This document shows, in pieces, positions 6,263 through 57,344 of a stretch of 64,000 nt of DNA (positions are counted from its first letter, which is position 1; the number at the start of each line of letters is the position of its first letter). The translations under genes and the position numbers were made by a program. The notes beneath the pieces are model-generated. The model was given only the letters and a program-made list of their open reading frames with translations. It was not told the origin of the DNA and did no database searches. Location: assembly GCA_021324825.1 (NCBI GenBank), contig JAJPII010000029.1, forward strand, positions 15,825-79,824, given 5' to 3'. This DNA comes from Spartobacteria bacterium (GTDB lineage Bacteria > Verrucomicrobiota > Verrucomicrobiia > Chthoniobacterales > Chthoniobacteraceae).

Positions 6263-6295
6263 GGTTGAATTCGTCACGGTTCGTCCCGCGCGGTG

Positions 6296-13329: not shown

Positions 13330-13400
13330 ATGGTGGGGCGTTGTGGAATGGCCGAGGAAGGGCTCGCTTTGGCGTTCCCGGAGTGGCAGGTTTGTTGACG

Positions 13401-13853: not shown

Positions 13854-13857
13854 TGGT

Positions 13858-14482: not shown

Positions 14483-14573
14483 AGGGGGGAAGGGTAAAGA
14501 AGAGGGGGCGGGATGGGAAGGGCATTTTCCCGTGGCGCGTGGCGCGCATCTAGCTCACTTTTGTGGCTCATTA

Positions 14574-39742: not shown

Positions 39743-39760
39743 TCATAGTTGATATTAATA
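39731..39760. promoter_or_regulatory. Two palindromic TATTAATA boxes in the divergent LysR/nitrate-array control region
   Basis: TATTAATA at 39731-39738 and at 39753-39760, 22 bp centre to centre. Located at the extreme 5' end of, or just upstream of, the LysR gene. Confidence 0.4.
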
Positions 39761-39841
39761 ACTTTCGCAACGTTCATGGCGGCCTTTGGGCGCAGGTGGC
39801 ATGGCCCTAGCTTATTGCGCCGGAAACAGTTTATCCGGCCC

Positions 39842-40900
39842 ATGATCAAAAAACCGCTTTCTCAATTTACGCAGGCTGGCGGGCTATTGCGCATCGGCTT
39901 CGTTCCTTTGAACGACTGCGCCCCCCTGGTCATGGCGCAGGAGTTGAAGCTGTTTCTCAAATACGGTTTGCAAGTCGAACTCATCCGCGAAGTTGGCTGG
40001 GCCACGATCCGCGACAAGATTATCTACGGAGAACTCGAAGCGGCACACGCCGTCGCAGGCCTGGTTTATGCATGTAATTTAGGACTCGGCTGCATTCAGA
40101 AAGATTGTCTGACCGCGCTGGTCCTAAACTTGCACGGAAACGCCATCACGCTTTCGGGGAGACTGCGCGCGCGCGGTGTAAGGGATGCGGCGACTCTGAA
40201 CGTGGAAGTGCAGCGAACGAGAGGGAGCCGCACGTTAACATTCGGCGTCGCTTCACAGGTTTCCTCGCATCCAGTTTTGATGCGCCGCTGGCTGCTCACG
40301 GGCGGCATCAATCCCGACAAAGACGTGCGCATCGTCGTTGTTCCGCCGCCGCAGATGTTCTGGAATCTCAAGGGTGGCCACATCGACGGTTACTGCGTCG
40401 GCGAGCCGTGGAATTCCGTCGCGGTCATGCGCGACGTAGGTTGGTGCGTGGCGACGAGCGAAGAACTCGCTCCGCTGCATCCGGAGAAGATTTTATTGGT
40501 GCAAAAGCGCTTTGCCGAAACAAGGGAGGCGGAACATCTCGCGCTGATCGCCGCGATACTCGAAGCGTGCGCGTTTTGTGATCGCCCGGAAAATCGCGAG
40601 CGCATCGTGGAAATGCTTGCGCAGCCCCAATACGTGGGAGCGCCGATTGAATCGCTGCGGATGAGCATGATGGGGCGGTTTCATTTCAGCCGCAGCCGAA
40701 TCGAGAAAATGCCAAACTTCAATGTTTTCGCCCGCCTCGATGCGAACACGCCCACTATCGAGAAAGCGGAGTGGATCTTGAGCGAACTGCTCGCCAGCGG
40801 AGTCCTCATCGATCCCCTCGTTCCGCCAAACGCGGCTCGCAAAGCTTTTCGCAATGACATTTTTCAACAAGCCACCCAGTTGATGCAATCAAACACCTAA
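39842..40900 (+). CDS. NrtA/NasS-like nitrate/nitrite-binding protein without a signal peptide
   Basis: ORF 39749..40900. The ATG at 39842 (MIKKPLSQF) is preferred. LRIGFVPLNDCAPLVMAQE...GYCVGEPWNS is typical of the NMT1/NrtA periplasmic-binding fold. No hydrophobic leader is present. Confidence 0.6.
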   Translation: MIKKPLSQFTQAGGLLRIGFVPLNDCAPLVMAQELKLFLKYGLQVELIREVGWATIRDKIIYGELEAAHAVAGLVYACNLGLGCIQKDCLTALVLNLHGNAITLSGRLRARGVRDAATLNVEVQRTRGSRTLTFGVASQVSSHPVLMRRWLLTGGINPDKDVRIVVVPPPQMFWNLKGGHIDGYCVGEPWNSVAVMRDVGWCVATSEELAPLHPEKILLVQKRFAETREAEHLALIAAILEACAFCDRPENRERIVEMLAQPQYVGAPIESLRMSMMGRFHFSRSRIEKMPNFNVFARLDANTPTIEKAEWILSELLASGVLIDPLVPPNAARKAFRNDIFQQATQLMQSNT

Positions 40901-42106
40901 ATGAAAATCAGCGACCTCAAAAAATCCGGCCATTGGCCTACCTTACTCACTGCGTTCCTGTACTTCGATTTCAGCTTCACGGCGTGGACGCTGCTCGGCC
41001 CGCTCGGCGTGCAAATCGGCGAGGCGTTGCATCTTTCGGCGCAGCAAAAGGGACTTATGGTCGCGGTTCCCATTCTATCCGGCGCGGCACTCCGTATCCT
41101 CCTCGGTCTGCTCGTGGACCGTATAGGAGCCAAAAATGCGGGCGTCATAGCGCAGATCGTTGTCATTTGCGGACTCGCGGCCGCTTGGCTGATCGGTCTA
41201 AAAAACTTCGAGGCCACACTGCTTATGGGTGCGGTGCTCGGCTTTGCGGGTGCGAGCTTTGCGGTTGCGCTGCCGCAAGCCGGCCGCTGGTATCCTCCGA
41301 ATATGCAAGGGGTGGTCATGGGCCTCGCTGGGGCGGGGAATGTTGGCACCGTTCTTGACGCGCTCTTCGCTCCGCGCATCGCGGCTGCTTACGGCTGGCG
41401 CAACGTCTTCGGCCTCGCCCTCATCCCCGCGGTGCTTGTGCTTCTCGTTTATGTGATCTTCTCGCGTGAAGCGCCGGTCGATGTGAAGAAGAAGAACCTT
41501 GGCGACTATCTGAATCTGCTCCGGCAGACCGATGCGCATTGGTTTTGCTTCTACTACACGGTGAGTTTCGGCGGCTTCGTCGGCCTCGCCAGTTCCTATG
41601 TCCTTTATTTTAAGAGCGAGTTCGGTTTGCCGGCCGTACACGCGGGTGATTTCGCCGCTATCTGCACCGCGAGCGGCGCGTTGCTGCGGCCTGTCGGCGG
41701 CGCGGTCGCGGATCGCATCGGCGGCATCCGCGCGCTCTATCGCCTTTACATCACGGCCGCCCTGGCCTTGGTCGCGGCAGGGTTTGCGCACAGCTTATAT
41801 CTGAACCTCGCTATCCTGCTCGTCGCTTCCGGCGCGCTCGGCATGGCGAATGGCGCTGTGTTTCAACTTCTCCCTCAGCGCTTCGGCAAGGACATCGGCG
41901 TGATGACCGGCCTGGTTGGCGCGGGCGGCGGCGTCGGCGGGTTCTATCTCGCGAGTTCGCTTGGTCTTTCCAAAGGCCTCACCAACTCCTATTTCACCGG
42001 CTTCCTGATCTTCGCGGGCCTCTGCGTGCTCGCGGTGCTGGGCCTCACCCTCGTGAAAACCCGCTGGCGCACGACCTGGGGCGCGCTCGCGCAAGCCCGC
42101 ATCTGA
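40901..42106 (+). CDS. narK: MFS nitrate/nitrite transporter (NarK/NasA family)
   Basis: 401 aa with about 12 TM helices. Motifs FDFSFTAWTLLGPLGV, GLLVDRIGAKNAG and GAGNVGT match the NNP family. The start abuts the upstream stop. Confidence 0.85.
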   Translation: MKISDLKKSGHWPTLLTAFLYFDFSFTAWTLLGPLGVQIGEALHLSAQQKGLMVAVPILSGAALRILLGLLVDRIGAKNAGVIAQIVVICGLAAAWLIGLKNFEATLLMGAVLGFAGASFAVALPQAGRWYPPNMQGVVMGLAGAGNVGTVLDALFAPRIAAAYGWRNVFGLALIPAVLVLLVYVIFSREAPVDVKKKNLGDYLNLLRQTDAHWFCFYYTVSFGGFVGLASSYVLYFKSEFGLPAVHAGDFAAICTASGALLRPVGGAVADRIGGIRALYRLYITAALALVAAGFAHSLYLNLAILLVASGALGMANGAVFQLLPQRFGKDIGVMTGLVGAGGGVGGFYLASSLGLSKGLTNSYFTGFLIFAGLCVLAVLGLTLVKTRWRTTWGALAQARI

Positions 42107-42107
42107 T

Positions 42108-43766
42108 TTGCTAACTTTGAAAGTCAACGTCACCAGCTTCGGCATGCCACGTTCACAACAAGCAGTTTCGCACGATGCCTTCGCCGTGCAGGCGCGAGAT
42201 GAAACGGTAATCGCCGTTCTCGCGGATGGCGCGGGCGAGGCGAATGAAGCGGGCGAGGCATCGCAAAAAATCGTGCAAGCGCTGATGACGAATTACCCCG
42301 CGCGTCCCGGGACATGGCCGCCGCAAAGAGCGCTCGCGGAATTCACAAAGCTCATCAATCGCACGCTGTATCACGACTCGATCGCGCGCTTCGGCGCTCC
42401 CGAGTTGGTCTCGACGCTGTCTGTCGCGGTGATCGAGGGCGATAAGCTTTATGGGCTGAACGTGGGCGACTCGCGCGTGTATCTCGCGCGCGGCGGCGAG
42501 CTTTCTCAGCTCTCCGCGGATCACGTTGCGGGCGGAAGCGGATACCGGCATATCCTGAACCGTGCAATCGGCCTCGCGCCCGAGGTTGAGCCGCATTGCT
42601 TTGAAATGGATCTCGCTGACGGCGACGTAGCGCTGCTTTGCTCCGACGGTATCTCGAATGTGCTGGACGACGCACTGCTCAAAACCAAGCTGGATCGCCG
42701 TTGCGCTGCCCGCGTGATCGTTTCCACCGCTTGCGAGAAAGCTACGCCCGAAACGCTCGATGACATGAGCGCCATCGTGCTCGACATTGCGGAAACGGGG
42801 AAACTGAAAGCTGTGAGCGAACTGCCGCTCTCCATTCCGTCGTCTTTAAGAAAGGGCGATGTCATCGATGGCTTTACCCTGCTGAAGTCTTTCCAGCAGA
42901 GCGACCGCGTCTGGCTCGCTGCGCGAGGCGGGCAACGCTTCACACTGAAATTTGCGCCGATCGAAGCGCTCGACAACGAGGCGGTGCTCAATCAATTCGT
43001 GAAAGAAACATGGAATGCCACGCGTCTCGACGCCGACTTTTTCGTGAAAGCGTTCATCCCGGAAGATGTTACGGTGCGCTGTTACGCGATGGAGTTCATC
43101 GAAGCGCCAAGCTTGAAGATGCTTCTGCGTTCGCGTCGCCTCGCTGTCGATGAAGGCGTCGCGCTCGGCAAGTTCTTGCTCAACGCAGCTCAATATCTGC
43201 TGCGGTTCGATCTTGTTCACGGCGACATCAAGCCGGAAAATATCCTCGTCCTCAGCGGTTACGATTCCGTGCTTTTCAAGCTCGTGGATTTCGGCAGCGC
43301 CACGGAAATTTTTTCGACCACCACGCGCGCGGGAACCGCGAGCTACCTTGCTCCCGAGCGATTTCACGAGGCTCCGATCGCGGAGCGGACCGAAGTTTTC
43401 GCTATTGGCGTGACGCTGTTTGAAGCGCTTACAAAGACCTTTCCCTACGGCGAAATCGAGCGTTTTCAGACCCCGCACTTCCACGCTCCGAAACGGACGG
43501 CGACGCTGAACGCTAATATCCCGCCCTGGCTCGATGCGGTGCTTTTACGCGCGGTATGCGCCAATCCGCGGTTGCGCTACCAGAACTATTCGGAGTTCCT
43601 CTTCGATCTTGAACATCCCGACAAAGTCGCGCCGTTTCATTATGCCGGTTCGACGTGGATCGAGCGCAACCCGCTTCGCTTCTACAAAACAGCCTTTTTC
43701 ATCGCGCTCGGGATCGTGATCTACCTTGCGATTAAACTGCTGAGCGCGGGCGCACGTTTTCCCTGA
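42108..43766 (+). CDS. PP2C phosphatase / Ser-Thr protein kinase fusion with a C-terminal TM helix
   Basis: 552 aa with a TTG start at 42108 (alternative ATG at 42144). PP2C-like N-terminal half (VLADGAGE...GDSRVY...CSDGISN). Kinase half (HGDIKPENIL, DFG, APE). C-terminal FFIALGIVIYLAIKLL is a TM helix. Confidence 0.8.
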   Translation: MLTLKVNVTSFGMPRSQQAVSHDAFAVQARDETVIAVLADGAGEANEAGEASQKIVQALMTNYPARPGTWPPQRALAEFTKLINRTLYHDSIARFGAPELVSTLSVAVIEGDKLYGLNVGDSRVYLARGGELSQLSADHVAGGSGYRHILNRAIGLAPEVEPHCFEMDLADGDVALLCSDGISNVLDDALLKTKLDRRCAARVIVSTACEKATPETLDDMSAIVLDIAETGKLKAVSELPLSIPSSLRKGDVIDGFTLLKSFQQSDRVWLAARGGQRFTLKFAPIEALDNEAVLNQFVKETWNATRLDADFFVKAFIPEDVTVRCYAMEFIEAPSLKMLLRSRRLAVDEGVALGKFLLNAAQYLLRFDLVHGDIKPENILVLSGYDSVLFKLVDFGSATEIFSTTTRAGTASYLAPERFHEAPIAERTEVFAIGVTLFEALTKTFPYGEIERFQTPHFHAPKRTATLNANIPPWLDAVLLRAVCANPRLRYQNYSEFLFDLEHPDKVAPFHYAGSTWIERNPLRFYKTAFFIALGIVIYLAIKLLSAGARFP

Positions 43767-43794: not shown

Positions 43795-44529
43795 ATGAAA
43801 GAAAGAACCATGACCAACCTGGCCGCAAAGCCAAAAAAAATCCGAGGGTTGCTTGCGGCAACCCTCCTTATCGCCACGATTCCATCTGCCTTTTGCGGGG
43901 ACGCGACGGACGTGTCGAAATCTGTAAACACAACCAATCTACTCCAAGAGGCGGCGGCTGCAAATCCGCTCTGCTTCTTGGACGGCCAACTCTGCTTCGA
44001 CCTGCAGGAGCGGGTGAGGTTCGAAATACGCGAAGATAATTACAGCTTCAACGACAGCGTCACGTCGCCCAACGACGGCTCGTGGCTGCTCCAGCGATTT
44101 CGCATCGGAGCCGTTCTTAAGCCGGTGGATTGGTTGACCGTTTACGCGCAGGGACAGGACTCGCCGGAAGCAGGCTCCGCACGGGCGAAGATTCCGGGCG
44201 CGCTCGGCGCGGAAGGCAATGATCCTCCAATCTGCGCCAGGCCTACATCGAGCTGGGGAACTACAAACTGTTTCCGGTCACTCTGAAAGTGGGCCGGCAG
44301 ATCCTCAGCTATGGCGATGAGCGGCTCGTCGGCGCCTTCGATTGGAACAACTTTGAGCGCACATTCGACGTGGTGAAGCTGCGCCTGGAGCAGCCAAATT
44401 GGTCCCTGGATGCGTTCACTTCAACTTCCAGGCCGGTTACAGCCATTCTTCGCGGGGGACTACCTGCGCGACACGGGACCGCACAGCGATGCGGATTTCG
44501 GCTACGTGATGGCCACGGTGAACTTCTAA
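43795..44529 (+). pseudogene. Decayed alginate-export-family outer-membrane porin gene
   Basis: Signal peptide plus first strands run in frame 1 to about 44220. LRQAYIELGNYKLFPVTLKVGRQILSYGDERLVGAFDWNNFERTFD is in a second frame. HFNFQAGYS and then FFAGDYLRDTGPHSDADFGYVMATVNF* (a typical beta-barrel C-terminal Phe) are in two further frames. The total of ~245 codons compares with >400 expected. Confidence 0.6.
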
Positions 44530-44574
44530 CGATGAGCTGAAACCCAAACCGACCGCGGCACAATCCGCGTTTTG

Positions 44575-46359
44575 ATGAAAACCATGAGCGCAGAAATCCT
44601 ATCCGAAAACGACTCGTTCAATCCCGAGCAGAAAGAATATCTCCAAGGGTTCTTTGCGGGTCTGGAAGCGGTCAGGGCATTGCCATTCGTAGGACACACC
44701 GCTGATGGCAGAATCACCAACGTATCCGCCGCGGGGTTGCCAAACTCCGCGGCGGCCCAGGAGGAGGATACCGTCTTCGGGACGCCGGTCGCGGATTTGT
44801 GCGAGCAGGAAATCTGGAAACTCGAAAAGAACGGCCTTGATTTCTGGGACGAGATGCTGAAATACGCCGAGGAGGATAAGTTTCCCGATAAGCGGGACAC
44901 GTTCCTGTTTCGGTACCAAGGGCTGTTCTACGTGGCTCCGACGCAAAACTCGTTCATGCTGCGCGGACGGGTTCCCGCCGGAGAACTGAGGGCGGAGCAG
45001 TTGCGAGGACTGGCGGGCATTGCAGACGAATGGGGCGGCGGGTACATCGATCTTACGACGCGGGCGAATTTCCAGATTCGCGAGATCATGCCGCGCAATT
45101 GCATCAAGGTGCTGCTGCGCCTCCAGGAGCTGGGTCTTACCGCGCGCGGCTCCGGCGTCGATAACGTGCGCAACATCACCGCCTCGCCCACCGCCGGCAT
45201 TGACCCCGCGGAACTGATCGACACGCGCCCCATGGCCAAGGGCGTACACTATTATATATTGAACAACCGCGACCTGTACGGTCTGCCGCGCAAGTTCAAC
45301 ATCGCGTTCGACGGGGGCGGCTCGATCAGCGCCGCTGCGGACACGAACGACATCGGCTTCATCGCCGTGCGCGTCGGCGAAGGGCGCGGCGTTGAACCGG
45401 GCATTTATTTTCGCGCCGAACTGGCTGGCATCACAGGGCATCAGCAGTTCGCGCAAGACGCGGGCATTCTGCTGCGACCCAGCGAATCAGTCGCGGTCGC
45501 GGCTGCGATGCTTCGCGTATTCAACGAAAATGGCGACCGCACCAACCGCAAGAAGGCGCGCCTAAAATATCTCATTGACAAGTGGGGCTGCGATAAATTC
45601 GTGGATGAGACGGAGAAGAAACTCGCCTTTCCACTCACGCGGCTTCCGAGGGACAAATGCATCCCGCGCCATCCGGCAATCCCGCATGGGCACATCGGCG
45701 TGTACAAACAAGCCCAGCGGGGCCTCAACTACATCGGCGCGGTCATTACCGTTGGGCGCATAAAAACAAAACAAATGCGACGCCTCGCGGACATCGCCCA
45801 GCACTATGGATCGGGCGAAGTCAGGCTGACCGTCTGGCAAAATCTCATCATCCCGAACGTGCCCGACGCATTCGTGGAGACGGTGAAAAAGAATCTCGTG
45901 AAAATGGGATTTCATTATGAAACCACCGCGATCTCCGGCGGCCTCGTCGCCTGCACCGGCAATGCCGGTTGCAAATGGTCGTCGACGAACACCAAAGCGC
46001 AGGCAGTCATGCTCGCGCGGCATTTGGAAAAAAAACTCACGCTCGATCAGCCGCTCAACATTCACCTCACCGGCTGTCCGAACTCATGCGCGCAACACTA
46101 TATGGGCGACATCGGCCTTCTCGGAACGAAGGTCGGCAAGGAGAACAGCGAGGGCTATCACGTCTTTTTTGGCGGCGGCTTCGGCGAGCAGCAAGCGGTC
46201 GCGCGCGAAATTTTTCACGGCATTCCTTTCGACGAGTTGCCCGGCTTGCTCGAGCATGTGTTGAAAATCTATCTCGACCGGCGGAACCGCGGCGAAAGCT
46301 TCGCCGCCTTTACTCGCCGCCACGAAGTGAAGCAATTACAGGAGCTGTTCTCGGAGTAA
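44575..46359 (+). CDS. nirA: Siroheme/[4Fe-4S] nitrite (or sulfite) reductase hemoprotein, NirA-like
   Basis: About 594 aa (TTG at 44572, ATG at 44575). Motifs FRYQGLF, LRGRVPAGEL, TTRANFQIREI, cluster cysteines CTGNAGCKWS and TGCPNSCAQHY. The nitrite assignment is by context. Confidence 0.75.
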   Translation: MKTMSAEILSENDSFNPEQKEYLQGFFAGLEAVRALPFVGHTADGRITNVSAAGLPNSAAAQEEDTVFGTPVADLCEQEIWKLEKNGLDFWDEMLKYAEEDKFPDKRDTFLFRYQGLFYVAPTQNSFMLRGRVPAGELRAEQLRGLAGIADEWGGGYIDLTTRANFQIREIMPRNCIKVLLRLQELGLTARGSGVDNVRNITASPTAGIDPAELIDTRPMAKGVHYYILNNRDLYGLPRKFNIAFDGGGSISAAADTNDIGFIAVRVGEGRGVEPGIYFRAELAGITGHQQFAQDAGILLRPSESVAVAAAMLRVFNENGDRTNRKKARLKYLIDKWGCDKFVDETEKKLAFPLTRLPRDKCIPRHPAIPHGHIGVYKQAQRGLNYIGAVITVGRIKTKQMRRLADIAQHYGSGEVRLTVWQNLIIPNVPDAFVETVKKNLVKMGFHYETTAISGGLVACTGNAGCKWSSTNTKAQAVMLARHLEKKLTLDQPLNIHLTGCPNSCAQHYMGDIGLLGTKVGKENSEGYHVFFGGGFGEQQAVAREIFHGIPFDELPGLLEHVLKIYLDRRNRGESFAAFTRRHEVKQLQELFSE

Positions 46360-46363
46360 ATCC

Positions 46364-48184
46364 ATGGATAAGACATCGTTGACGACCAGCACCCCAGTTA
46401 GCGCGCCATTCATTCCCGACCATGCTCCGTTCACGCCCGCGCAGCGCGCGTGGTTGAATGGCTTTCTCGCCGCGATATTTTCCGCGCCCCGCGCCGGGGC
46501 GGCCGCGCCCGCGCCGCCGCCCGCGGCGACCAAAGTCAAAGTGTGCGTGCTCTTCGGGTCCGAAAGCGGGAACTGTGAAGCGCTCGCAAAGCGTTTGGCA
46601 AAAGTCGCGCAAGGCAAAGGCTACGACGCGGCGGCGAAAGGCCTGGACAAAATCAAGCTCCACGATCTCGCGAAGGAAAAGTACGCGCTCTTCGTTGCGA
46701 GCACATTCGGCGATGGGGAACCGCCGGAAAACGCGAAGGAGTTTCACGCCGCGCTGCTCGGGGGCGGCGCGCCGCGTTTGGAAAATCTCAGTTTCTCCAT
46801 CTGCGCGCTCGGCGACACGAATTACGAGAAGTTCTGCCAGTGTGGGAAAGACTTTGACGCCGGGCTGCATGCGCTGGGAGCTAAGCGGATTTTCGAGCGG
46901 GCGGATTGCAACGTCGACTTCGAGGAAACATTTCAGCAGTGGCAGGAGGGCGTCTTCAGCGTGCTGGACGCCATGGCGAAATCGGAAGGCGTGGCTCCCG
47001 CTTCAGCAAATGGCGCATCGCCGAAACTGGAGCCAGAACAGGCGCCGGAAGCCGCGGCAACGCTCGCTTATTCTCGCAAGAATCCGTTCCTCGCGACGCT
47101 GCTTACCAATCGCAAGCTTACGTCCGGCGACTCCGCGAAAGAAACACGCCATTATGAAATCTCGCTCGAAGGCTCTGGGCTGACTTACGAGGCCGGCGAC
47201 GCGCTCGGAGTTTTCCCCACGAATTGCCCCGCTCTTGTTGAGGATGTTTTGCGCGCGCTTAACTGCGACGGCGAGGAAGCGGTGCCGGCGCCCGACGGCA
47301 GCGAAGCGCCGTTGCGCATCGCGCTCACAAGGCATTACGAGATCAACAAAGCTCCTCCGCCCCTGCTTCAGACAATCGCCGAACGCAGCGCCGATAAGAC
47401 ATTGCGTGACATGCTTGATCCCTCGGCGAAGGACGCATTGAAGCATTATTTATGGGGCCGCGAGGTTGTCGATCTGCTGGTCGATTTCGCCTCTGCCAAA
47501 CTCAGCGCGGTCGAATTCGTCGGGTTGCTCAAGAGTTTGCAGCCTCGTCTCTACTCGATTTCGTCGAGCCTCAAAGCGTTTCCGAACCAGGTGCATCTAA
47601 CCGTGGCCGCCGTGCGCTATGAGAGCTTCGGACGCAAGCGCAAGGGCGTCTGCTCGACGTTTCTCGCGGATCGGGCAAACGGCGCGGTCCCGGTCTTCAT
47701 CCAAACCTCGCACAGCTTCCGTACGCCGCGGGACGGCGGCACGCCGATGATCATGGTCGGCCCCGGCACCGGCGTGGCGCCGTTCCGCGCGTTCCTGCAT
47801 GACCGGCGCGCGACCGGGGCGAAAGGCGTCAACTGGCTTTTCTTCGGGGAGCAGCGGGCGGCGACAGACTTTTTCTACCGGGACGAATTCGACGCGATGC
47901 TCGCGGACGGACATCTCACAAAACTCAGCACGGCGTTTTCCCGCGACCAGGCGGAGAAGGTTTACGTGCAGCATCGGATGCTGGAACATGCTGCGGATCT
48001 CTGGAAATGGTTGCAGGACGGCGCCCACTTTTATGTGTGCGGAGACGCCACCCGCATGGCGAAGGACGTGGACGCCGCATTGCACAGCGTCATCGAAACC
48101 GCAGGCGGCCTGAGCAGGGATGACGCGGAGGCTTACGTGCAAAAATTGAAGACCGACAAGCGCTACCAACGGGACGTTTACTAA
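46364..48184 (+). CDS. CysJ-like diflavin reductase (flavodoxin plus FAD/NADPH ferredoxin-reductase modules)
   Basis: 606 aa. Flavodoxin VCVLFGSESGNCEALA...STFGDGEPP. FAD RLYSISSS. NADPH GPGTGVAPFRAF. C-terminal YQRDVY. Confidence 0.85.
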   Translation: MDKTSLTTSTPVSAPFIPDHAPFTPAQRAWLNGFLAAIFSAPRAGAAAPAPPPAATKVKVCVLFGSESGNCEALAKRLAKVAQGKGYDAAAKGLDKIKLHDLAKEKYALFVASTFGDGEPPENAKEFHAALLGGGAPRLENLSFSICALGDTNYEKFCQCGKDFDAGLHALGAKRIFERADCNVDFEETFQQWQEGVFSVLDAMAKSEGVAPASANGASPKLEPEQAPEAAATLAYSRKNPFLATLLTNRKLTSGDSAKETRHYEISLEGSGLTYEAGDALGVFPTNCPALVEDVLRALNCDGEEAVPAPDGSEAPLRIALTRHYEINKAPPPLLQTIAERSADKTLRDMLDPSAKDALKHYLWGREVVDLLVDFASAKLSAVEFVGLLKSLQPRLYSISSSLKAFPNQVHLTVAAVRYESFGRKRKGVCSTFLADRANGAVPVFIQTSHSFRTPRDGGTPMIMVGPGTGVAPFRAFLHDRRATGAKGVNWLFFGEQRAATDFFYRDEFDAMLADGHLTKLSTAFSRDQAEKVYVQHRMLEHAADLWKWLQDGAHFYVCGDATRMAKDVDAALHSVIETAGGLSRDDAEAYVQKLKTDKRYQRDVY

Positions 48185-48186
48185 CG

Positions 48187-49875
48187 GTGCCTGCCACACA
48201 AGATTTCAGCGAATCGCGCACGCTCATCGACGACCTGCTGGCCGAGCAGCAGACAATGACGGCGGCGGCTAAATTCTCGCGTTTGCACGAACGTCATCAG
48301 CTCCCCGCGCAAGCCAGATACTACCGCGACCTCATCCCGCTGGAGCGTCCGCGCGACGGGGAGCAGTATGCCTTTGCGGTCGATCTGGATGGCTGCACGG
48401 GGTGCAAGGCGTGCGTCACGGCATGCCATAATTTGAACGGCCTCGACGATGACGAGACATGGCGCGAAGTAGGCGTCCTTTTTGGAGGGACGGTTCTCGA
48501 ACCGGTGCAGCAGACGGTGACGACGGCGTGCCACCACTGCGTTGACCCGGCGTGCATGAACGGCTGCCCGGTGCTCGCGTACGAAAAGGATCCCGTGACC
48601 GGCATCGTGCGGCATTTGGACGACCAGTGCATCGGCTGTCAATACTGCATTTTGAAATGCCCCTACGATGTGCCGAAGTATTCCAAAAAACGCGGCATCG
48701 TGCGGAAGTGCGACATGTGTTCCTCTCGGCTGGCGGTCAACGAAGCGCCCGCCTGCGTGCAGGCATGCCCGAACGAGGCGATCCGAATCGAAGTCGTGAA
48801 CAAAGCGGAGATGGTGCGGGAAGCGGCGCTCGGGAAATTTCTGCCCGACTCGCCGGACCCGGCTTACACAAAGCCGACTACACTTTATCGAACCAAAAGA
48901 AAATTCCCGGCAAACATGCAGGGGGGCGATTATTTCCACGTGAAGCCGGAGCACTCGCATCCGGCGCTTGTGGTGATGCTGGTGCTCACGCAATTATCGG
49001 TCGGCGCGTTCGGCATGGCGGTGCTTTTGCGAACGGTGTTTTCCGCGCCGCTGGTGGCGCGGTTCACGCCCTTTCACTCGCTGGTCGCGCTCGCGCTCGG
49101 GCTTCTGGCGCTGGGCGCGAGCACGATGCATCTGGGCCGGCCCCTCTACGCTTGGAGGGCTTTTGTGGGATTGCGCACATCGTGGTTGAGCCGCGAGATC
49201 ATGGCTTTCGGCGGTTTCGCGGCACTGGCGAGCCTCTATGCGGGGTCCTTCTGGCTCTCGCTCTTCGCGAAAACCGCGGGCCTTGCCATTCCCGGCATGT
49301 GGGCTTTGCCGATCGCGCAGCGAGCATCGGGGATACTTGTCGTCTTCAGTGGGATTATCGGCATCGCTTGTTCCGCGATGATTTATCATGATACCCAGCG
49401 GAAGTTTTGGTCGGACGCGAGGACATTCCTGAAATTCTTCGGAACCGCGGCGCTGCTCGGACCCGCGACAATCCTCTTCACTATGACGGCGCAGACGCTG
49501 TGGTTCACGACTGCCCGGCATGACCCGGCCTTTCGCGAAATCTGTTCCTTGCTCGCAGCGGCCGTCCTGGCAGTAAGCGCCATGAAGCTGGCATGGGAGC
49601 TTTCGATCTTTGTGCATCTGCGCGACCCTGAGTTCTCGCTGATGAAGCGTACGGCGCTTTTGATGCGAGGCGAACTGAAAGCGATAACGCTGGCGCGGTT
49701 TATCTTTGCCTTTATGGGGGGCATGGCTCTGCCGCTGGCCGTCCTGCTTGGCATGACGGAGCCTGCGTTCGCGCTGGCCGTCATGCCGCTCTGTTTGCTC
49801 GGGGAGTTGCTGGAGCGCTCTCTGTTTTTCACGGCGGTTATTCCGCCGAAGATGCCTGGCGGGGTGGCTGCATGA
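48187..49875 (+). CDS. Fusion of a 4Fe-4S dicluster ferredoxin (DmsB-like) to a DmsC-like polytopic membrane anchor
   Basis: 562 aa with a GTG start. Cys clusters [37 protein letters not shown] and CDMCSSRL...CVQACP. These are followed by about 8 TM helices containing [24 protein letters not shown] (DmsC-type). The stop overlaps the ATG of the molybdoenzyme (ATGA at 49872-49875). Confidence 0.7.
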
Positions 49876-52115
49876 AAGATCATCCGCTCATAAAAAAGAT
49901 CGGCTCGTTGATTCGCGCGCACGATGGCGCGCTGACGCAAGACCTTGTGCAGCATCCAGGCGAATTCGGCCTGGGCAAAGTCCCGGCCCGGCTGATGCCC
50001 GACGACACCACCACGACGATCTGCGGCTTCTGTTCGACCGGTTGCGGATTGAACGTTCATCTCAAGAATGGAGAAGCGATCAATCTCACCCCGACGACGG
50101 ATTATCCGGTAAACCTCGGCATGGCTTGCCCGAAAGGGTGGGAGGCGTTGACGCCCTTGCGCTCAGCGGACCGGGCGACGACGCCCTATCTTCGAAATAC
50201 GAGCGGAACGCTGGAGCCTGTGGATTGGGACACGGCGCTTCAAGTTTTCACGGTTCGGTTCAAGGCGATCCAGGACCAGCATGGCAAGGAGTCCATCGCA
50301 TTCTTGAGCACTGGGCAGATTTGCACCGAAGAGATGGCGCTTCTTGGCGCGCTCGCCAAATTCGGCATGGGGATGCTGCACGGCGACGGGAATACGCGGC
50401 AGTGCATGGCCACGGCGGTAACGGCCTATAAACAGTCCTTCGGCTTTGACGCTCCCCCTTATACCTACGCGGATTTCGAAGAGTCGGACGTGCTCGTCTT
50501 CGTCGGCTCGAACCTCTGCATCGCGCACCCAATCATGTGGGAGCGTGTCTGCCGGAACAAAAATAATCCCGAAATCATCGTCGTCGATCCCCGTAAAACG
50601 GAAACGGCGATGGCGGCGACGCAACATTACGCAATAACGCCGAAGTCCGATCTCACGCTGCTTTACGGGCTCGCAAATATTCTCATCGCGAGTGGCTGGA
50701 TCGATCTGGATTATATTGAAAAACATACAAGCGGATTCGAGGAATTCGTCCGATTCGTCACGCGGTTTACATCCGATACCGTAAGCGCGGCGACAGGGAT
50801 CAGTGTCGAAAATCTGTGGCGTTTCGCCGATACGATTCATCGGGGGAAACGGGTCTCGTTTTGGTGGACGATGGGTGTGAATCAGGGGCACGAGGCCACA
50901 CGCACGGCGCAGGCGATCATCAATCTCGCCCTGATGACGGGAAACCTCGGACGTCCCGGCACGGGCGCCAATTCCGTCACGGGCCAGTGCAACGCGATGG
51001 GCTCCCGCCTCTTCAGCAACACGACGAATATGCTCGGCGGTCACGATTTTCTGAATGAAGCGCATCGGAAAAAGGTCGCGGCGGTGCTGGGCATCGACGT
51101 GGGTTGTGTGCCCTCGCAAAACTCATGGGCGTATGACCAGATCATCGATGGAATCGAAAGCGACAAGATCAAGGGGCTGTGGATCATCGCAACGAATACT
51201 TCGCATTCGTGGATCAATCAGCGATCATTCAACGAACTGACGAAGAAGCTCGATTTTCTTGTCGTGCAGGATATGTATTACACGACCGAAACGGCGCAGC
51301 GCGCGCACCTTGTGTTGCCCGCGGCCGGGTGGGGTGAGAAGGAGGGGACATTCATCAACTCGGAACGGCGTCATGGTTTGGTCAAAAAGGTTTCGCGGGC
51401 GCCGGGGCAGGCGCTGTCGGACTTTAACATCTTCAAACTCGTTGCTCAGTATTGGGGCTGCGGCGACATGTTTGCGCGCTGGTCTTCGCCTGAGGAGGCA
51501 TTCCAGATCATGAAAGAGCTTTCGCGGGGGCAGCCCTGCGATATCACCGGCATCGACGACTATCTCATGCTGGACCGCGCCGGCGGCGTGCAATGGCCGT
51601 GGAGCGGCGAATCCACTTCCGCAAATGCCGGGGCCGTAAACGAGGAGCGGGCGCTCCCAGGACAGGAACGGCGGCTCTTTGAGGACGGCGCCTACTTCCA
51701 TGCGGATGCCAGGGCACGGTTTCTCTTCTCCGAGCCATGCGAGGCGCCGGAGCCGGTCGACGATGAATATCCCTTTACGCTGCTCACGGGACGCGGCACT
51801 TCCTCCCAGTGGCACACGCAGACGCGCACTGCGAAATCGGCGGTGTTGCGGAAGCTCTACCCCGAGAACGCCTACGTCGAAATCAATCCCCTGGACGCGG
51901 AGCGGCTGGGCATCGCTTCCGGCACGCTGGTGGCCGTCGTGTCGCGGCGGGCGCGCGTCGAAGCGAGTGCTTTTATTGCAATGACCGTCCAAAAGGGCCA
52001 GGTTTTCATGCCGATGCACTATGCCGTGACCAATGAACTCACGTTTCCATCGTTCGATCCGTTCTCGCGCCAGCCCAACTACAAAGCCTGCGCGGTGCGG
52101 GTAGAAAAAGCGTGA
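49872..52115 (+). CDS. nasA: Molybdopterin oxidoreductase, assimilatory nitrate reductase type (NasA/NasC/NarB family)
   Basis: 747 aa. N-terminal 4Fe-4S motif CGFCSTGCG...[20 protein letters not shown] carries the Cys Mo ligand. MGD-binding blocks are present. There is no twin-arginine leader. Confidence 0.85.
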
Positions 52116-52130: not shown

Positions 52131-53123
52131 ATGCATAACTCCCCCGCCCCTCTTGATGCTGTTTCGCGTCCCGTGGATTACCTGCGTATTTCCATCACGG
52201 ATCGGTGCAATGAGCGGTGCCTTTATTGCCTGCCAGAGGGTTTCACGGCATGGACGGAGCGCGAGGAAATCCTAACCTATGAGGAATTGCTGCACGTTGC
52301 GCGGGCCGCGACGGCGCTCGGTTTCCGCAAATTCCGCGTCACCGGCGGCGAGCCGTTGGTGCGGCGAAACGCGAGTGACTTCCTGGCCGCCCTGATCGCG
52401 CAGCCGGGAGTCGAACACGTCGGCCTCTCGACCAATGGCATCCGGCTTTCCGCCTCTGCGCGTGCGCTCGCTGAAGCCGGGTTGCGCAGCGCGAACATCA
52501 GCCTCGACGCGGTTGAGCCGGCGATTTATCGGCGCATTACAGGCGGCAATGTGCGAGAAGTCATCGCCGGCATCGAAGCGGCGCAGGCCGCCGGTATTTC
52601 GACGATCAAGCTGAACGCCGTGCTCATTCGTGGTGTAAATGAAAATCAAATCTGGCCGCTCGTGCAATTTGCCGCGAGCCGCGAGTTGATTCTGCGCTTC
52701 ATCGAATTGATGCCGGTCAGTCTTACAAGCGTGCTGAACGAGGAAAACTTTTTCCCGGTCGGCGAAGCAAAGAAAGCCGTCGCCAGCCGGACGGCGATGA
52801 TTCCGGACCTCACGCGCCATGGAAACGGCCCCGCGGCCTACTACCGGCTGCCGGAATTATCGGCGACAGTCGGTTTTATCGGCGCGCTCACCGATCTTCA
52901 TTTTTGTGAAACGTGCAATAAAATGCGCCTCACTGCGGATGGAAGCATTCGCCCATGCCTCGGGAATCACGGAGAGATCGACCTCAAGCCGGCGTTGCGA
53001 CCTCGCGCGGATGCAGCACGGCTGCGGAAGTTATTTTTGCAAGCGTTGCGCGACAAGCCGCGCGAGCATAGTTTTCGAGACCGGTATCAGCCGAACCGGG
53101 TAATGACGGCCATCGGCGGCTGA
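52131..53123 (+). CDS. moaA: GTP 3',8-cyclase MoaA (radical SAM)
   Basis: 330 aa. Motifs YLRISITDRCNERCLYCLPEG and the C-terminal cluster CETCNKMRLTADG. Confidence 0.9.
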   Translation: MHNSPAPLDAVSRPVDYLRISITDRCNERCLYCLPEGFTAWTEREEILTYEELLHVARAATALGFRKFRVTGGEPLVRRNASDFLAALIAQPGVEHVGLSTNGIRLSASARALAEAGLRSANISLDAVEPAIYRRITGGNVREVIAGIEAAQAAGISTIKLNAVLIRGVNENQIWPLVQFAASRELILRFIELMPVSLTSVLNEENFFPVGEAKKAVASRTAMIPDLTRHGNGPAAYYRLPELSATVGFIGALTDLHFCETCNKMRLTADGSIRPCLGNHGEIDLKPALRPRADAARLRKLFLQALRDKPREHSFRDRYQPNRVMTAIGG

Positions 53124-53378: not shown

Positions 53379-53783
53379 ATGATGCCTCGTATATCCATTG
53401 AAATAAAAAATCGTCCCCTCGGATCGGCTCCCGCGCCCGTCGGCGACTGCGGAGCTGTCGTGGATTTCCGCGGCGTAGTGCGCGGCGAGGAAGATGGGAA
53501 GCCGATCTCCGCTCTCGAGTATCACGCTTATCAACCAATGGCCGAACGTGAGATGAACCGGATCGTGCGCGAATTGACGGACGAGTTTGCGTGCTTCGAT
53601 GTTTACATCGCGCATCGCGTCGGTATTGTGCCGGCCGGCGAAGCGGCGATCCTCGTGCGAGTTGCAGCCCGGCACCGCGGACCGGCATTTTGCTTCCTTC
53701 CAGAGTTTATGGACCGCCTCAAAATCGACGTGCCGATTTGGAAGGTTCGCTCCATCCCCGCAGGGGTGGTCTCCCCAACATGA
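53379..53783 (+). CDS. moaE: Molybdopterin synthase catalytic subunit MoaE
   Basis: 134 aa. GAVVDFRGVVRGE...LEYHAYQPMAE is typical of MoaE. The stop overlaps the moeA ATG (ATGA). Confidence 0.75.
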   Translation: MMPRISIEIKNRPLGSAPAPVGDCGAVVDFRGVVRGEEDGKPISALEYHAYQPMAEREMNRIVRELTDEFACFDVYIAHRVGIVPAGEAAILVRVAARHRGPAFCFLPEFMDRLKIDVPIWKVRSIPAGVVSPT

Positions 53784-54961
53784 TTTCCGTTGCGGAGACC
53801 GCGACGCTCATTCTATCGAAAGCCTTGGCGCTGGATGTGGAACGAGTCCCGCTCGCTTCGGCGCTTCACCGCGTTTTGCGCGAAGACATCGTGGCGGATT
53901 TGGACTCGCCGCGCTTCGACTGCTCGGCAATGGACGGTTACGCTCTCCGAACTGTCGATATGGCCGGACGCTTGAGGATTACCGGTGAGATTCCGGCGGG
54001 GCACGACAGCGATTTAAGGATCGGCAGCGGCGAATGCGCGCGCATATTCACCGGCGGGCGAGTTCCATCCGGCGCGGATCGCGTGGTGATGCAGGAGGAT
54101 GTCGAGGTCGAAGGGGAATTCATTCGCATCAAAGGCGGGAGCATCGCTACGCATGTGCGCCGAAAAGGCGAGAATTACAGGGGGGGCGATGTGCTCGTGC
54201 GCGCCGGACAGCGCCTGCGCGCGGCGGAACTCGCGACGCTGGCAAATTGCGGCGTCTCCGTTCCGCTTGTGACGCGGCGGGCGCGCGTCGTCCACTTCGT
54301 CACCGGAGACGAAGTGGTCGCCCCCGAACAGACGCCAACAGGCGCACAGGTGCGGGACTGCAATTCGATCCTGATTTCCTCGTTGCTGGCTGAACAGGGC
54401 GCCCGGCTTGTCGTGCAGCAGCTCCTTGGCGATTCCCTCGAAGAGCAACACGATGCGCTCGCAGCCCAGGATTTCGATGTGGCGTTCATCTCAGGCGGAG
54501 CCAGCGTGGGAGACTACGATTTTACACGTCCCGTGCTGAAGGCAGCCGGTTTCTCGATCCATGCGGAGAAGGTGAATCTGCGTCCCGGCAAACCGCTTGT
54601 GTTCGCCACGCGCGGCAGGCAACTCGCGTTCGGGCTGCCAGGAAATCCCGTTTCGCACTGGGTCATCTTCCAGCTTTTTCTTGTACCGCTCTTCGAGAAA
54701 TTGCGCGGGTGCATCGCGAGAAACGCCTGGCGGCGGGGCCGTTTCCAAAAGGACTTCGCGGCTGCTCCGAATGCGCGCGAAACGTATTGGCCGGCCTCGG
54801 CAGAATTCGAGGAGGGGGAATACAGACTGCGACCGCTGCGGTTTGTGAGCTCGGGGGACATCGCCGGGCTTGCCGGGGCGAATGCGCTCGTTAAGATCGC
54901 GCCGAACCGCGAGTGTATCGGCGAGACGGAAACGGCGGACTTTTTATTGTGCGAACCATGA
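53780..54961 (+). CDS. moeA: Molybdopterin molybdotransferase MoeA
   Basis: ORF 53591..54961, trimmed to the ATG at 53780 ([12 protein letters not shown]). Motifs [20 protein letters not shown] and LPGNPVS. Confidence 0.85.
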
Positions 54962-55434: not shown

Positions 55435-55919
55435 AAATCGCGCGCGTCACCTTGAGCGATCGCGCCACGGAAGGCGTCTATGAAGACGCGAGCGGGCCTG
55501 AGATCGAGCGCGTCGTGCAGCAGCTTTTCGCGGACGACATCGAATGGCATCGGGCGCTGTTGAGGGACGAACGGCGGGACATTGAAGAGGCATTGCGCCG
55601 CTTTGCGGATGAAGTGCGGTGCCCGCTCATCCTGACGACGGGCGGGACGGGGCCGTCGACGCGCGATGTGACCCCGGAGGCTACCCGCGCGGTATTGGAA
55701 AAGGAGTTGCCGGGGTTTGGGGAACTGATGCGAATGCAGAGCTATGCCAAAGTGAAGACCGCGATTCTCTCTCGCGCGACGGCTGGCATTCGAGGCGCCA
55801 GCCTGATAATCAATCTTCCAGGACGCCCCAGCGCCATCGCGGAATGTCTGCCTTTGATCGCGCCCGCCATTTGCGAGGCAGTGGAACACCTGACAGGGGT
55901 GCGGCCGATTTTGAGATGA
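55431..55919 (+). CDS. mog: Molybdopterin adenylyltransferase, MogA/MoaB family
   Basis: 162 aa with a GTG start overlapping the moaC stop. Motifs [50 protein letters not shown]. Confidence 0.8.
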
Positions 55920-56671
55920 AGCGCTACGGACTGGGTTTGATTTTTATGTGCCTTGTCGCTGTTCCCCTCACGAATGCCGCTGAGCTGACCGTCTTTGCGG
56001 CGGCAAGCTTGATGGACGTGCTCCACGAAATCGGCGCGCGTTGGGAACAGGCCAGCGGTAACAAGGCGGTATTCAACTTCGCGAGTTCGAGCACGCTCGA
56101 GCGGCAGGTAAGCGCGGGCGCGCCGGCGGATGTTTTCCTGTCCGCGGACGAGGCGAAAATGGATCAACTCGCGAAGCAGGATTTGATACTGCCCGGCACG
56201 CGCGAAACCATTTTGTCGAATACACTGGTAGTCGTCGTGCGCAAGAAGAGCCTGCTTTCACTCACGAAGGCCGCCGATATCGCCCAAGTTTCCTCACTGG
56301 CTCTCGCCGAGCCGGAGACGGTGCCCGCGGGCATCTATGCGCGGGAATATCTCGAAAAAATCGGCTTCTGGGACGCCTTGAAGAGCAAGGTCATTCCCAC
56401 TGAGAACGTGCGGGCCGCGCTCGCGGCGGTGGAGGCCGGGAATGCGGACGCGGGGATCGTTTACAAGACCGACGAAGAAACCTCCAAAGACTTGAAGATC
56501 GCCTGGGAAGTGCCCGCGAGCGAAGGCCCGAAGATTTCCTACGCCGTCGCGATCATGCGGGCGACCAGCCAGCCCGAACTGGCGAGAAAATTTCTCGCCT
56601 GGCTCTCTTCACCTGGGGCGAAGGAATCGTTTAGAAAATACGGATTCCTTCTGCCGGGCGGGCATGATTAG
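55916..56671 (+). CDS. modA: Molybdate ABC transporter substrate-binding protein ModA
   Basis: ORF 55619..56671, trimmed to the ATG at 55916 ([21 protein letters not shown] signal peptide). Motifs VFAAASL, FASSSTL, ADVFLSAD, GIVYKTD. Confidence 0.85.
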   Translation: MKRYGLGLIFMCLVAVPLTNAAELTVFAAASLMDVLHEIGARWEQASGNKAVFNFASSSTLERQVSAGAPADVFLSADEAKMDQLAKQDLILPGTRETILSNTLVVVVRKKSLLSLTKAADIAQVSSLALAEPETVPAGIYAREYLEKIGFWDALKSKVIPTENVRAALAAVEAGNADAGIVYKTDEETSKDLKIAWEVPASEGPKISYAVAIMRATSQPELARKFLAWLSSPGAKESFRKYGFLLPGGHD

Positions 56672-57344
56672 GCCTGACGAATGGCAGGTCCTCCGCCTCA
56701 CGGTGGTGCTGGCGGCGCTGAGCAACCTGCTGATTCTCGCGCCGGGACTGGCGCTCGCATGGGTGCTGGCGCGAGGAGATTGGCGCGGGAAATCGGTGGT
56801 CGAAACGATCGTGACGCTCCCGCTTGCCATGCCGCCGGTGGCCACGGGATTGATATTGCTGAAGCTGCTGGGGCGGCGGGGAATGATCGGCGAATTTCTG
56901 CACGAAATCGTTCATTTCGACATCGCGTTCACCTGGCGCGCGGTGGTGATCGCCATGGCCGTGATGTCGTTCCCCCTGCTCGTTCGCACATGTCGCACCG
57001 CCTTTGCGCAGGTAGATCCGCGTCTGGAGCAAATCGCGCGCACGCTGGGAGCGAGTGATCCGCGCGTTTTTTTCACGATAACGCTGCCGCTCGCCCGGCG
57101 TGGAGTCGTGGCGGGAAGCCTGCTGGCCTTTGCCCGGGCGCTTGGAGAATTCGGCGCGACCATCATGGTGGCCGGCAACATTCCAGGTCGCACTTCCACG
57201 CTGCCGCTTGCGATCTATCACCTCGTGCAATTGGGGCAGGACGCACAGGCTTATCGCATGATGCTGATCTCGATTCTGATCACTTTCGCCGCCGTATGGT
57301 TCGGCGAAAAACTTGTCCCGCGCGGGAAAGAAGCCGGGCCATGA
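56664..57344 (+). CDS. modB: Molybdate ABC transporter permease ModB
   Basis: 226 aa with 5 TM helices. EAA-type loop ARTLGASDPRVFFTITLPLARRG. Overlaps modA by 8 nt. Confidence 0.85.
   Translation: MIRPDEWQVLRLTVVLAALSNLLILAPGLALAWVLARGDWRGKSVVETIVTLPLAMPPVATGLILLKLLGRRGMIGEFLHEIVHFDIAFTWRAVVIAMAVMSFPLLVRTCRTAFAQVDPRLEQIARTLGASDPRVFFTITLPLARRGVVAGSLLAFARALGEFGATIMVAGNIPGRTSTLPLAIYHLVQLGQDAQAYRMMLISILITFAAVWFGEKLVPRGKEAGP

Follow-up and report, generated by a model that had tools for sequence, protein, structure and literature searches.

A predicted quinol-fed nitrate reductase and a candidate NADPH:nitrite reductase in a nitrate-assimilation cluster of a Spartobacteria bacterium

From which donors would nitrate and nitrite receive their electrons in a cell that encodes a NirA-type hemoprotein, a CysJ-like flavoprotein, a DmsB-DmsC fusion and a leaderless Nas-type molybdoenzyme in one run of packed genes? 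This question is raised by a locus in a 64,000-nucleotide stretch of DNA from a Spartobacteria bacterium (GenBank assembly GCA_021324825.1, contig JAJPII010000029.1, positions 15,825 to 79,824), to which we refer as the window. An initial annotation had described the arrangement as an unusual wiring for nitrate and nitrite assimilation, and had proposed a nitrite reductase in the style of sulfite reductase together with a cytoplasm-facing, membrane-tethered nitrate reductase that draws on the quinol pool or on the diflavin reductase. From comparison of sequences and gene neighbourhoods, we consider it fairly probable that this is a nitrate-assimilation operon for a cytoplasm-facing, quinol-fed nitrate reductase and a two-subunit nitrite reductase driven by nicotinamide adenine dinucleotide phosphate (NADPH). 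The four genes concerned, numbered 1 to 4 in this order, are as follows.

44575..46359, plus strand: predicted NirA-family sirohaem-[4Fe-4S] nitrite reductase hemoprotein (NIR_SIR and NIR_SIR_ferr domains)
46364..48184, plus strand: CysJ-like diflavin reductase for flavin mononucleotide (FMN), flavin adenine dinucleotide (FAD) and NADPH, proposed NADPH-oxidising partner of NirA (Flavodoxin_1, FAD_binding_1 and NAD_binding_1 domains)
48187..49875, plus strand: DmsB-DmsC fusion with an N-terminal extension of about 58 residues, a four-[4Fe-4S] domain and an NrfD/DmsC-type anchor of eight transmembrane (TM) helices
49872..52115, plus strand: leaderless catalytic subunit of a predicted nitrate reductase with molybdenum-bis(molybdopterin guanine dinucleotide) (Mo-bisMGD), Nas/Nap clade, with a conserved N-terminal extension of about 45 residues

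All four run in the same direction, and the open reading frame (ORF) listing gives these same limits (44572/44575 for the first start, GTG as the start codon of gene 3). Read directly, the junctions are TAA-atcc-ATG between genes 1 and 2, a 4-nt gap; TAA-cg-GTG between genes 2 and 3, a 2-nt gap; and gcATGAaa between genes 3 and 4, an ATGA overlap. These match exactly the spacings given in the initial annotation, whose four gene identities are likewise borne out by Pfam and NCBIfam domain content. The genes belong to a nitrate-assimilation island, in which a LysR regulator, an NrtA-like protein and NarK are encoded before them and MoaA, MoeA and ModAB after them.

Identity of the four gene products

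The hemoprotein of gene 1 scored 856 bits with the NCBIfam model NF007126 ('NirA family'; cut-off 523). With the ferredoxin--nitrite reductase equivalog NF007125 it stayed below threshold (400 bits against 594), and two CysI equivalog models scored 139 and 184 bits, with cut-offs of 757 and 457. Among proteins in the PDB, the tobacco and spinach nitrite reductases gave 252-255 bits, Mycobacterium tuberculosis NirA 192, maize sulfite reductase 134 and Escherichia coli CysI 75. The cysteine ligands of the sirohaem-[4Fe-4S] centre lie in the motifs CTGNAGC and TGCPNSC. At the anion site the protein reads LPRKFNIAF (Lys-x-Asn), and LPRKFN is also found in its alphaproteobacterial relatives, against LPRKFKTT (Lys-x-Lys) in E. 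coli CysI; structural work has established that the second lysine of the sulfite reductase anion site is replaced by asparagine in nitrite reductases. These features fit a nitrite reductase. A sulfite-specific hemoprotein, the case that would have undone the initial proposal, is spoken against by the Lys-x-Asn site and by 255 bits to plant nitrite reductase as opposed to 75 to CysI, and we rejected a sulfite reductase identity for gene 1 on these grounds. The closest homologue, at 86% identity, comes from metagenome-assembled genomes (MAGs) of Chthoniobacter/Chthoniobacterales. In Bradyrhizobium japonicum, whose gene is likened to this one by name only, deletion of nirA abolished growth on nitrate or nitrite, which marks it genetically as the assimilatory nitrite reductase of that species (PMC4724949).

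The product of gene 2 shares 40% identity with E. coli CysJ along its full length, and falls just short of the TIGR01931 cysJ cut-off (643 bits against 668).

Gene 3 encodes Fer4_11 and DmsC domains in a single protein (Pfam DmsC 49 bits, cut-off 22; TIGR02951 DmsB 127 bits, under its cut-off of 214). Behind the N-terminal segment of about 58 residues, which is kept across relatives and absent from DmsB, the rest of the protein aligns throughout with E. coli DmsB and then DmsC. Four full cysteine groups are present (C70/73/76/80, C115/118/123/127, C148/151/154/158 and C175/178/190/194); all 16 of these cluster cysteines were invariant in a 12-sequence alignment, and with 45 sequences 12 were invariant and the other four at least 90% conserved. 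Eight TM helices were indicated by hydropathy and by an AlphaFold model (pLDDT 75, pTM 0.77). Foldseek searches with this model related the iron-sulfur (FeS) half to ArrB, FdnH and PsrB and the membrane half to ActC and PsrC; a PDB sequence search with the fusion matched the FeS half alone, so that the membrane half was recognised by fold only. The nearest homologues are again in Chthoniobacter/Chthoniobacterales MAGs, at 72-73% identity, and public annotation calls the fusion a 'formate dehydrogenase iron-sulfur subunit' or a 'DMSO reductase anchor subunit'. The best matches of NirA and of the fusion make a verrucomicrobial origin of the window most likely. The concern, attached to the initial annotation, that the fusion might be an artefact of a missed stop codon was ruled out: both halves occur together in 119 full-length relatives at 55-73% identity, and tblastn matches in 80 genome loci cover approximately residues 2-562 in one frame.

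The molybdoenzyme of gene 4 contains the domains Molybdop_Fe4S4, Molybdopterin and Molydop_binding, with the motif CGFCSTGC at the N-terminal FS0 site. Its N-terminal extension (DGxLTxxLxxxPGxFGLGxVP) is non-hydrophobic and is found from Verrucomicrobiota to Sorangium. None of the NCBIfam models reached its cut-off (NasA_Halo 443 bits against 1000, NasC 402 against 1100, Fdh-alpha 464 against 666; NapA 329), and the best PDB matches were an FdhF and Desulfovibrio NapA, with equal score. Pairwise identity to four references was 32% for a Methylocystis NasA-type enzyme, 29% for E. coli NapA, 27% for FdhF and 22% for DmsA. Alignment of the active sites was more telling. The molybdoenzyme has RQCMATAV and VTGQCNAMG where NapA has RLCMASAV and LTGQPNACG and FdhF has RLCHAPTV and LRGQNNVQG, and RQCMA and (I/V)TGQxNAMG were kept in all 75-79 homologues checked. 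We do not read the protein as a formate dehydrogenase because the catalytic histidine and arginine of that enzyme are missing; this identity, to which the top NCBIfam and PDB scores had pointed, was ruled out by the active-site residues together with the gene context. The sequence fits a nitrate reductase of the Nas/Nap clade.

Orientation, electron supply and gene co-occurrence

Lysine and arginine residues were counted in alignment-defined loops across 119 relatives of the fusion. The mean was 15.0 in loops on the FeS side and 3.4 on the opposite side, and the smallest difference in any member was 6. In E. coli DmsC, where the DmsB side is periplasmic, the bias is reversed (4 versus 7). Under the positive-inside rule, this bias places the FeS side of the anchor fusion in the cytoplasm. 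A twin-arginine motif was sought in the fusion and in the molybdoenzyme and was found in neither. Export by twin-arginine translocation (Tat) and a periplasmic location were ruled out; strings resembling the motif upstream of some homologues fall outside the ORFs. These data fit an FeS domain, and hence a nitrate reductase, that faces the cytoplasm. With no Tat motif, a charge ratio of this kind and the Cys-Met and Thr-Gly-Gln signatures of the catalytic subunit, the cytoplasm-facing, membrane-tethered enzyme proposed at the outset has gained support.

The quinol site of E. coli DmsC comprises S62, H65, S82 and E87, and replacement of H65 blocks quinol oxidation (PMC8076601). The corresponding residues of the fusion are S312, H315, S332 and E337, which are kept in 118, 119, 119 and 119 of the 119 relatives and sit at the cytoplasmic ends of TM2 and TM3, beside the FeS domain. 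Mainly because these residues are conserved and lie next to the FeS domain, quinol is probably the electron donor of the nitrate reductase. Of the two donors left open by the initial annotation, the evidence favours the quinol pool, the diflavin reductase being the less favoured.

The fusion matched at least 590 species genomes by tblastn, and locus analysis was carried out on the best 80 of these, which come from Verrucomicrobiota, Planctomycetota, Polyangia and Poribacteria. These loci were scanned by tblastn with the window proteins and their neighbours, and Pfam was run on representatives. The molybdoenzyme gene follows the FeS-DmsC gene in 76 loci, the other four being contigs that end early. 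A fused NirBD of about 1000 residues (Pyr_redox_2 ... NIR_SIR ... Rieske_2) is encoded in 53 and nitrate-type transporters of the major facilitator superfamily (MFS) in about 40; NirA was found in eight loci and a CysJ-like gene in nine, and NirBD and a CysJ-like gene never occur together. Most loci have no extra flavoprotein gene adjoining the FeS-DmsC/molybdoenzyme pair, and for this reason the pair seems to carry its own electron entry. Three more verrucomicrobial contigs keep the four-gene order, behind LysR, NMT1_2 proteins and either NarK or, as in L082, a full NrtABCD-type transporter. In L082 the CysJ-like and FeS-DmsC genes are separated by a DUF4202 gene (13622-14263). In the Planctomycete locus L018 a gene for a 267-residue FAD_binding_6 and NAD_binding_1 protein lies between nirBD and FeS-DmsC (9089-9892), and the same is seen in L024 and L076.

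The CysJ-like gene is present in all eight loci with NirA and in none of the 53 with NirBD, counts that are weakened as evidence by coming from related genomes that are not phylogenetically independent. NirA and CysJ-like genes adjoin each other in either order, and stand upstream or downstream of the nitrate reductase pair. By this comparison of gene content, the four genes are two separable two-gene modules, FeS-DmsC/molybdoenzyme and CysJ-like/NirA, and a single co-inherited module was ruled out across the 80 loci. Both pairings noted initially do recur, then, without forming one four-gene unit. The wiring is unusual when set against textbook Nas systems and is not unusual in nature: the FeS-DmsC/Nas pair matched at least 590 species genomes, and nitrate clusters of Alphaproteobacteria routinely combine NirA with a CysJ-like protein.

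Two such clusters were compared. A Methylocystis plasmid carries NasT/NasS/NrtABC, an Flp-like flavoprotein, NirA, a 'sulfite reductase subunit alpha' and a BFD-containing NasA. On a Sulfitobacter plasmid NirA is accompanied by a CysJ-like gene; the 12 kb displayed include nothing annotated as a nitrate reductase, and NirA lies about 1.4 kb from the end of the displayed record. In the Methylocystis 'sulfite reductase subunit alpha' (L085, 10737-12326) a small putative Fe-S domain (PF04060) replaces the flavodoxin domain on the same FAD/NADPH body. The simplest reading of these patterns is that the CysJ-like protein supplies the reductase that NirA lacks and NirBD has built in. Because the CysJ-like gene tracks a NirA that replaces NirBD, and because the pair also occurs in Alphaproteobacteria, the pair looks like an NADPH:nitrite reductase with the organisation of sulfite reductase. 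The sulfite-reductase-style enzyme suggested by the initial annotation is in keeping with the Lys-x-Asn site, with plant nitrite reductase as the nearest match and with the 8 of 8 against 0 of 53 distribution.

Taken together, the proposed pathway would begin with the entry of nitrate through NarK. Quinol would be oxidised at the DmsC-type site at the cytoplasmic end of TM2/TM3, and its electrons would pass through the four [4Fe-4S] clusters to the FS0 [4Fe-4S] cluster and on to the Mo-bisMGD of the Nas-type subunit, which would reduce the imported nitrate to nitrite inside the cell. The CysJ-like protein would move electrons from NADPH to FAD and then to FMN, and from this FMN they would reach the sirohaem-[4Fe-4S] centre of NirA, where nitrite would be reduced to ammonium; we infer that the transfer from the CysJ-like protein to NirA is direct. 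Because its quinol site is on the inner face, the nitrate step would itself build no proton gradient, and feeding it from quinol would presumably be cheaper for the cell than feeding it from NAD(P)H or ferredoxin.

Several observations weigh against this pathway. The molybdoenzyme lies under every NCBIfam equivalog cut-off and scores as high with the Fdh-alpha model as with the Nas models, and the argument for a quinol site consists of four conserved residues, which structural reasons could also preserve. Others concern the flavoprotein. In the window the CysJ-like and FeS-DmsC genes are just 2 nt apart; in L070 the CysJ-like gene abuts FeS-DmsC directly on its 5' side, NirA not lying between them; and in L018, L024 and L076 the gene directly 5' of FeS-DmsC encodes a protein like ferredoxin-NADP reductase (FNR), a sign that in certain lineages the FeS protein may receive electrons from NAD(P)H. 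Because of these FNR-like genes, the L070 order and the 2-nt spacing, a pyridine-nucleotide route into the FeS domain is allowed. A CysJ-type diflavin module is moreover, according to PMC7816997, which cites Tan et al. 2020, an established donor to the Nas-type molybdenum domain of mycobacterial NasN, and NasA-CysJ fusions have been described in Alphaproteobacteria (PMC4013037). All this would suit a single NADPH-driven system, in which the CysJ-like protein feeds NirA and, via the four-cluster domain, the nitrate reductase as well, with DmsC as a tether or a quinone overflow link. We nevertheless think such a system rather unlikely. The FeS-DmsC/Nas pair is present without a CysJ-like gene in the 53 NirBD loci, the invariant quinol-site residues are hard to square with a passive tether, and the N-terminal extension of the FeS protein is kept in loci that lack CysJ and is therefore not a CysJ-specific docking site.

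Dependence of NirA on ferredoxin or flavodoxin, with the CysJ-like protein serving the nitrate reductase only or acting as a general flavodoxin reductase, would agree with the closest solved relatives of NirA, which are ferredoxin-dependent plant enzymes. Ferredoxin dependence has also been assumed in the model for B. japonicum NirA (PMC4724949), a further point against the NADPH route. This arrangement appears improbable given that the CysJ-like gene tracks NirA and not the nitrate reductase, that the displayed 12 kb of the Sulfitobacter plasmid pair the two and contain nothing annotated as a nitrate reductase, and that NirA is under the NF007125 cut-off. We would give an equally low standing to a dissimilatory role, in which the membrane enzyme is respiratory or redox-balancing like NarGHI and NirA or NirBD detoxifies nitrite. 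A membrane-bound, cytoplasm-facing layout with a quinol site does resemble NarGHI, and E. coli NirBD also serves dissimilatory nitrite ammonification. However, the nitrate reductase pair occurs with uptake systems (NarK, and the high-affinity NrtABCD-type transporter of L082) and with assimilatory-type nitrite reductases, its catalytic subunit is in the Nas/Nap clade rather than the NarG clade, and a quinol site on the cytoplasmic side would release protons inside the cell, so that no proton gradient would arise from the reaction. Least credible of all, and scarcely to be expected, is a function in sulfur assimilation, with genes 1 and 2 as a variant of the CysJI sulfite reductase beside a non-nitrate molybdoenzyme. 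The near-threshold CysJ score of gene 2 and its 40% identity to E. coli CysJ would be explained, as would the 192-bit match of gene 1 to M. tuberculosis NirA, which is a sulfite reductase; set against these are the asparagine at the second lysine position, the preference for plant nitrite reductase over CysI, the CysI model scores well under both cut-offs, and flanking genes that are all concerned with nitrate/nitrite transport or molybdenum.

Neighbourhood of the cluster and other features of the window

The flanking genes of the nitrate-assimilation island are the following.

38804..39742, minus strand: LysR-family regulator, divergent, likely regulator of the cluster (NCBIfam LysR-family matches; the same divergent LysR in L005, L008, L015 and L082-L084)
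39749..40900, plus strand: NrtA/NMT1_2-type solute-binding protein, possibly for nitrate/nitrite binding or sensing (Pfam NMT1_2, 250 bits)
40901..42106, plus strand: NarK-family nitrate/nitrite MFS transporter (TIGR00886, 248 bits)
42108..43766, plus strand: bifunctional PP2C phosphatase / Ser-Thr protein kinase (Pfam PP2C_2 and Pkinase)
52131..53123, plus strand: MoaA (GTP 3',8-cyclase), molybdenum cofactor supply (TIGR02666, 323 bits against a cut-off of 284)
53591..54961, plus strand: MoeA-like molybdopterin molybdotransferase (NF007960, 263 bits, below the 440-bit cut-off; aligned from residue 67)
55619..57344, plus strand: ModA and ModB, binding protein and permease of a molybdate ATP-binding cassette (ABC) transporter (TIGR01256, 204 bits; TIGR02141, 223 bits)

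The NrtA/NMT1_2-type protein at 39749-40900, placed between the divergent LysR and NarK, is adjoined by no ABC permease or ATPase, and this arrangement is seen again in L008 and L084; instead of forming part of a transporter, the protein could serve to sense nitrate/nitrite. Copies of NarK at 71-85% identity adjoin the same module in L001-L003, L008 and L070. The PP2C/kinase fusion starts 1 nt after NarK and has homologues at the same position in L001 and L056, and it may control nitrate transport or the reductases through phosphorylation. A 163-residue ORF without a family match also lies upstream of the four genes on the same strand.

What remains of a gene for an outer-membrane porin of the Alginate_exp family (AlgE-like) lies at 44247-44540. 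Its intact counterpart, of 356 residues, stands directly upstream of nirA in L083, a related contig. Residues 1-60 of the L083 porin match the remnant at 75% identity and residues 305-356 match in another frame, with about 245 codons gone. An outer-membrane anion porin may be an ancestral part of the nitrate cluster. Between the remnant and nirA lies a G+C-rich hairpin, CGCGGCACAATCCGCG, at 44554-44574; it is followed by TTTTG and ends 1 nt before the nirA ATG, and could be the terminator of the decayed upstream gene or a regulatory attenuator. On the other side, moaA begins 15 nt past the stop codon of the nitrate reductase gene, and the true start of the MoeA-like gene is probably later than its ORF start. 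An Rfam scan of 38-59 kb, which included the molybdenum cofactor riboswitch, gave no match.

Elsewhere in the window, the minus strand carries a non-ribosomal peptide synthetase region at 17451-31539, where an 838-residue ORF with Condensation, PP-binding and Thioesterase domains adjoins ORFs of 3268 and 590 residues. A 1044-residue SNF2-family helicase is encoded at 35274-38408 on the same strand, as are two very long ORFs of 1450 and 2144 residues at 1698-12730, the shorter of which has no Pfam match. The GC skew at 12001-16000 is +0.22 to +0.25, far over that of the rest of the window.

Significance and relation to known systems

All the parts described here come from known superfamilies, and the cytoplasm-facing DmsC-type layout is precedented by SoeABC and, functionally, by NarGHI; the locus recombines familiar modules rather than presenting novel chemistry. 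Two arrangements nevertheless appear undescribed: the use by several phyla of a Nas-clade catalytic subunit and a fused DmsBC partner as their standard enzyme for assimilating nitrate, and the pairing of NirA with a CysJ-like protein as a sulfite-reductase-style nitrite reductase. Searches of open-access full texts turned up neither a Nas linked to DmsBC nor a nitrite reductase made of NirA and CysJ, and either may be described elsewhere. The broadest form of our proposal, in which we place about as much belief as doubt, is that FeS-DmsC/Nas adds a fourth class to the assimilatory nitrate reductases of bacteria, one that is bound to the membrane, faces the cytoplasm, is fed directly by quinol and would be the main route in Planctomycetota, many Verrucomicrobiota, Polyangia (Sorangium) and sponge-symbiont Poribacteria, with NirA and the CysJ-like protein forming an uncharacterised NADPH:nitrite reductase.

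If this holds, a quinol-fed Nas would alter the estimate of what nitrate assimilation costs in energy and redox terms, and several abundant phyla of soil, freshwater, marine and sponge-associated habitats would be affected. Because pipelines mislabel the partner protein, metagenomic nitrogen-cycle surveys miss the link or may miscount the enzyme. A natural DmsABC-type enzyme flipped toward the cytoplasm would be useful for studying the evolution of orientation and Tat dependence, and the NirA and CysJ-like pair allows a direct comparison of how diflavin reductases dock on sirohaem enzymes. The nitrate reductase pair is directly testable, since the matched genomes include cultured hosts such as Sorangium cellulosum and Adhaeretor mobilis.

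The architecture closest to the putative nitrate reductase is that of E. coli DmsABC, which combines a catalytic subunit carrying molybdenum-bis(pyranopterin guanine dinucleotide) and FS0, a four-[4Fe-4S] subunit and a haem-free anchor of eight TM helices with the same quinol residues (PMC8076601). In contrast to DmsABC, the B and C parts are fused here, there is no Tat leader, the charge bias of the loops is inverted, both subunits have extra N-terminal extensions, and the catalytic subunit belongs to the Nas/Nap clade, with 22% identity to DmsA. SoeABC shares the predicted orientation, being membrane-bound with cytoplasmic catalytic and FeS subunits, and its NrfD/DmsC-like anchor, SoeC, lacks haem and has a counterpart of His65 (PMC8076601); unlike the pair described here, SoeABC oxidises sulfite, reduces quinone and has separate subunits. 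NarGHI likewise performs quinol-driven nitrate reduction in a membrane-bound, cytoplasm-facing complex, but it has a dihaem NarI anchor, oxidises quinol at the outer face, uses a NarG-clade catalytic subunit and is respiratory. In M. tuberculosis, NarGHI also supports nitrate assimilation.

Textbook Nas enzymes (cyanobacterial NarB, Azotobacter/Klebsiella NasA, Paracoccus NasC with NasB/NasG and Bradyrhizobium NasC with Flp) resemble gene 4 in being leaderless, cytoplasmic Mo-bisMGD proteins of the Nas/Nap clade, with an N-terminal [4Fe-4S] cluster and the Cys-Met signature, and in having genes clustered with those of a nitrate transporter and a sirohaem nitrite reductase. The known Nas enzymes are soluble, and their donors are ferredoxin, flavodoxin or NAD(P)H flavoproteins (PMC4724949), whereas here a DmsBC-like membrane partner is encoded in 76 of the 80 loci and no soluble partner is encoded with the pair.

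The proposed nitrite reductase is most readily compared with E. coli CysJ/CysI. In both, a diflavin reductase gene lies beside that of a monomeric sirohaem-[4Fe-4S] hemoprotein of the same superfamily for a six-electron reduction; the hemoprotein described here differs in being of NirA type with Lys-x-Asn, at 23% identity to CysI. The E. coli hemoprotein uses its first 80 residues to dock on the FNR domain of its flavoprotein partner (PMC11195156). A CysJ-type diflavin module also takes part in nitrate assimilation in mycobacterial NasN and in the NasA-CysJ fusions of Gordonia, Beijerinckia and Methylocystis parvus (PMC7816997, PMC4013037); there it is fused to the molybdenum domain and feeds nitrate reduction, while here it is a separate protein whose gene tracks NirA. 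The Methylocystis and Sulfitobacter plasmid clusters come nearest to genes 1 and 2, with NF007126-family NirA proteins at 45-47% identity and a CysJ-related flavoprotein directly after them, although the nitrate reductase of the Methylocystis cluster is a soluble, NasA-type protein that ends in a BFD [2Fe-2S] domain and is accompanied by an Flp-like flavoprotein.

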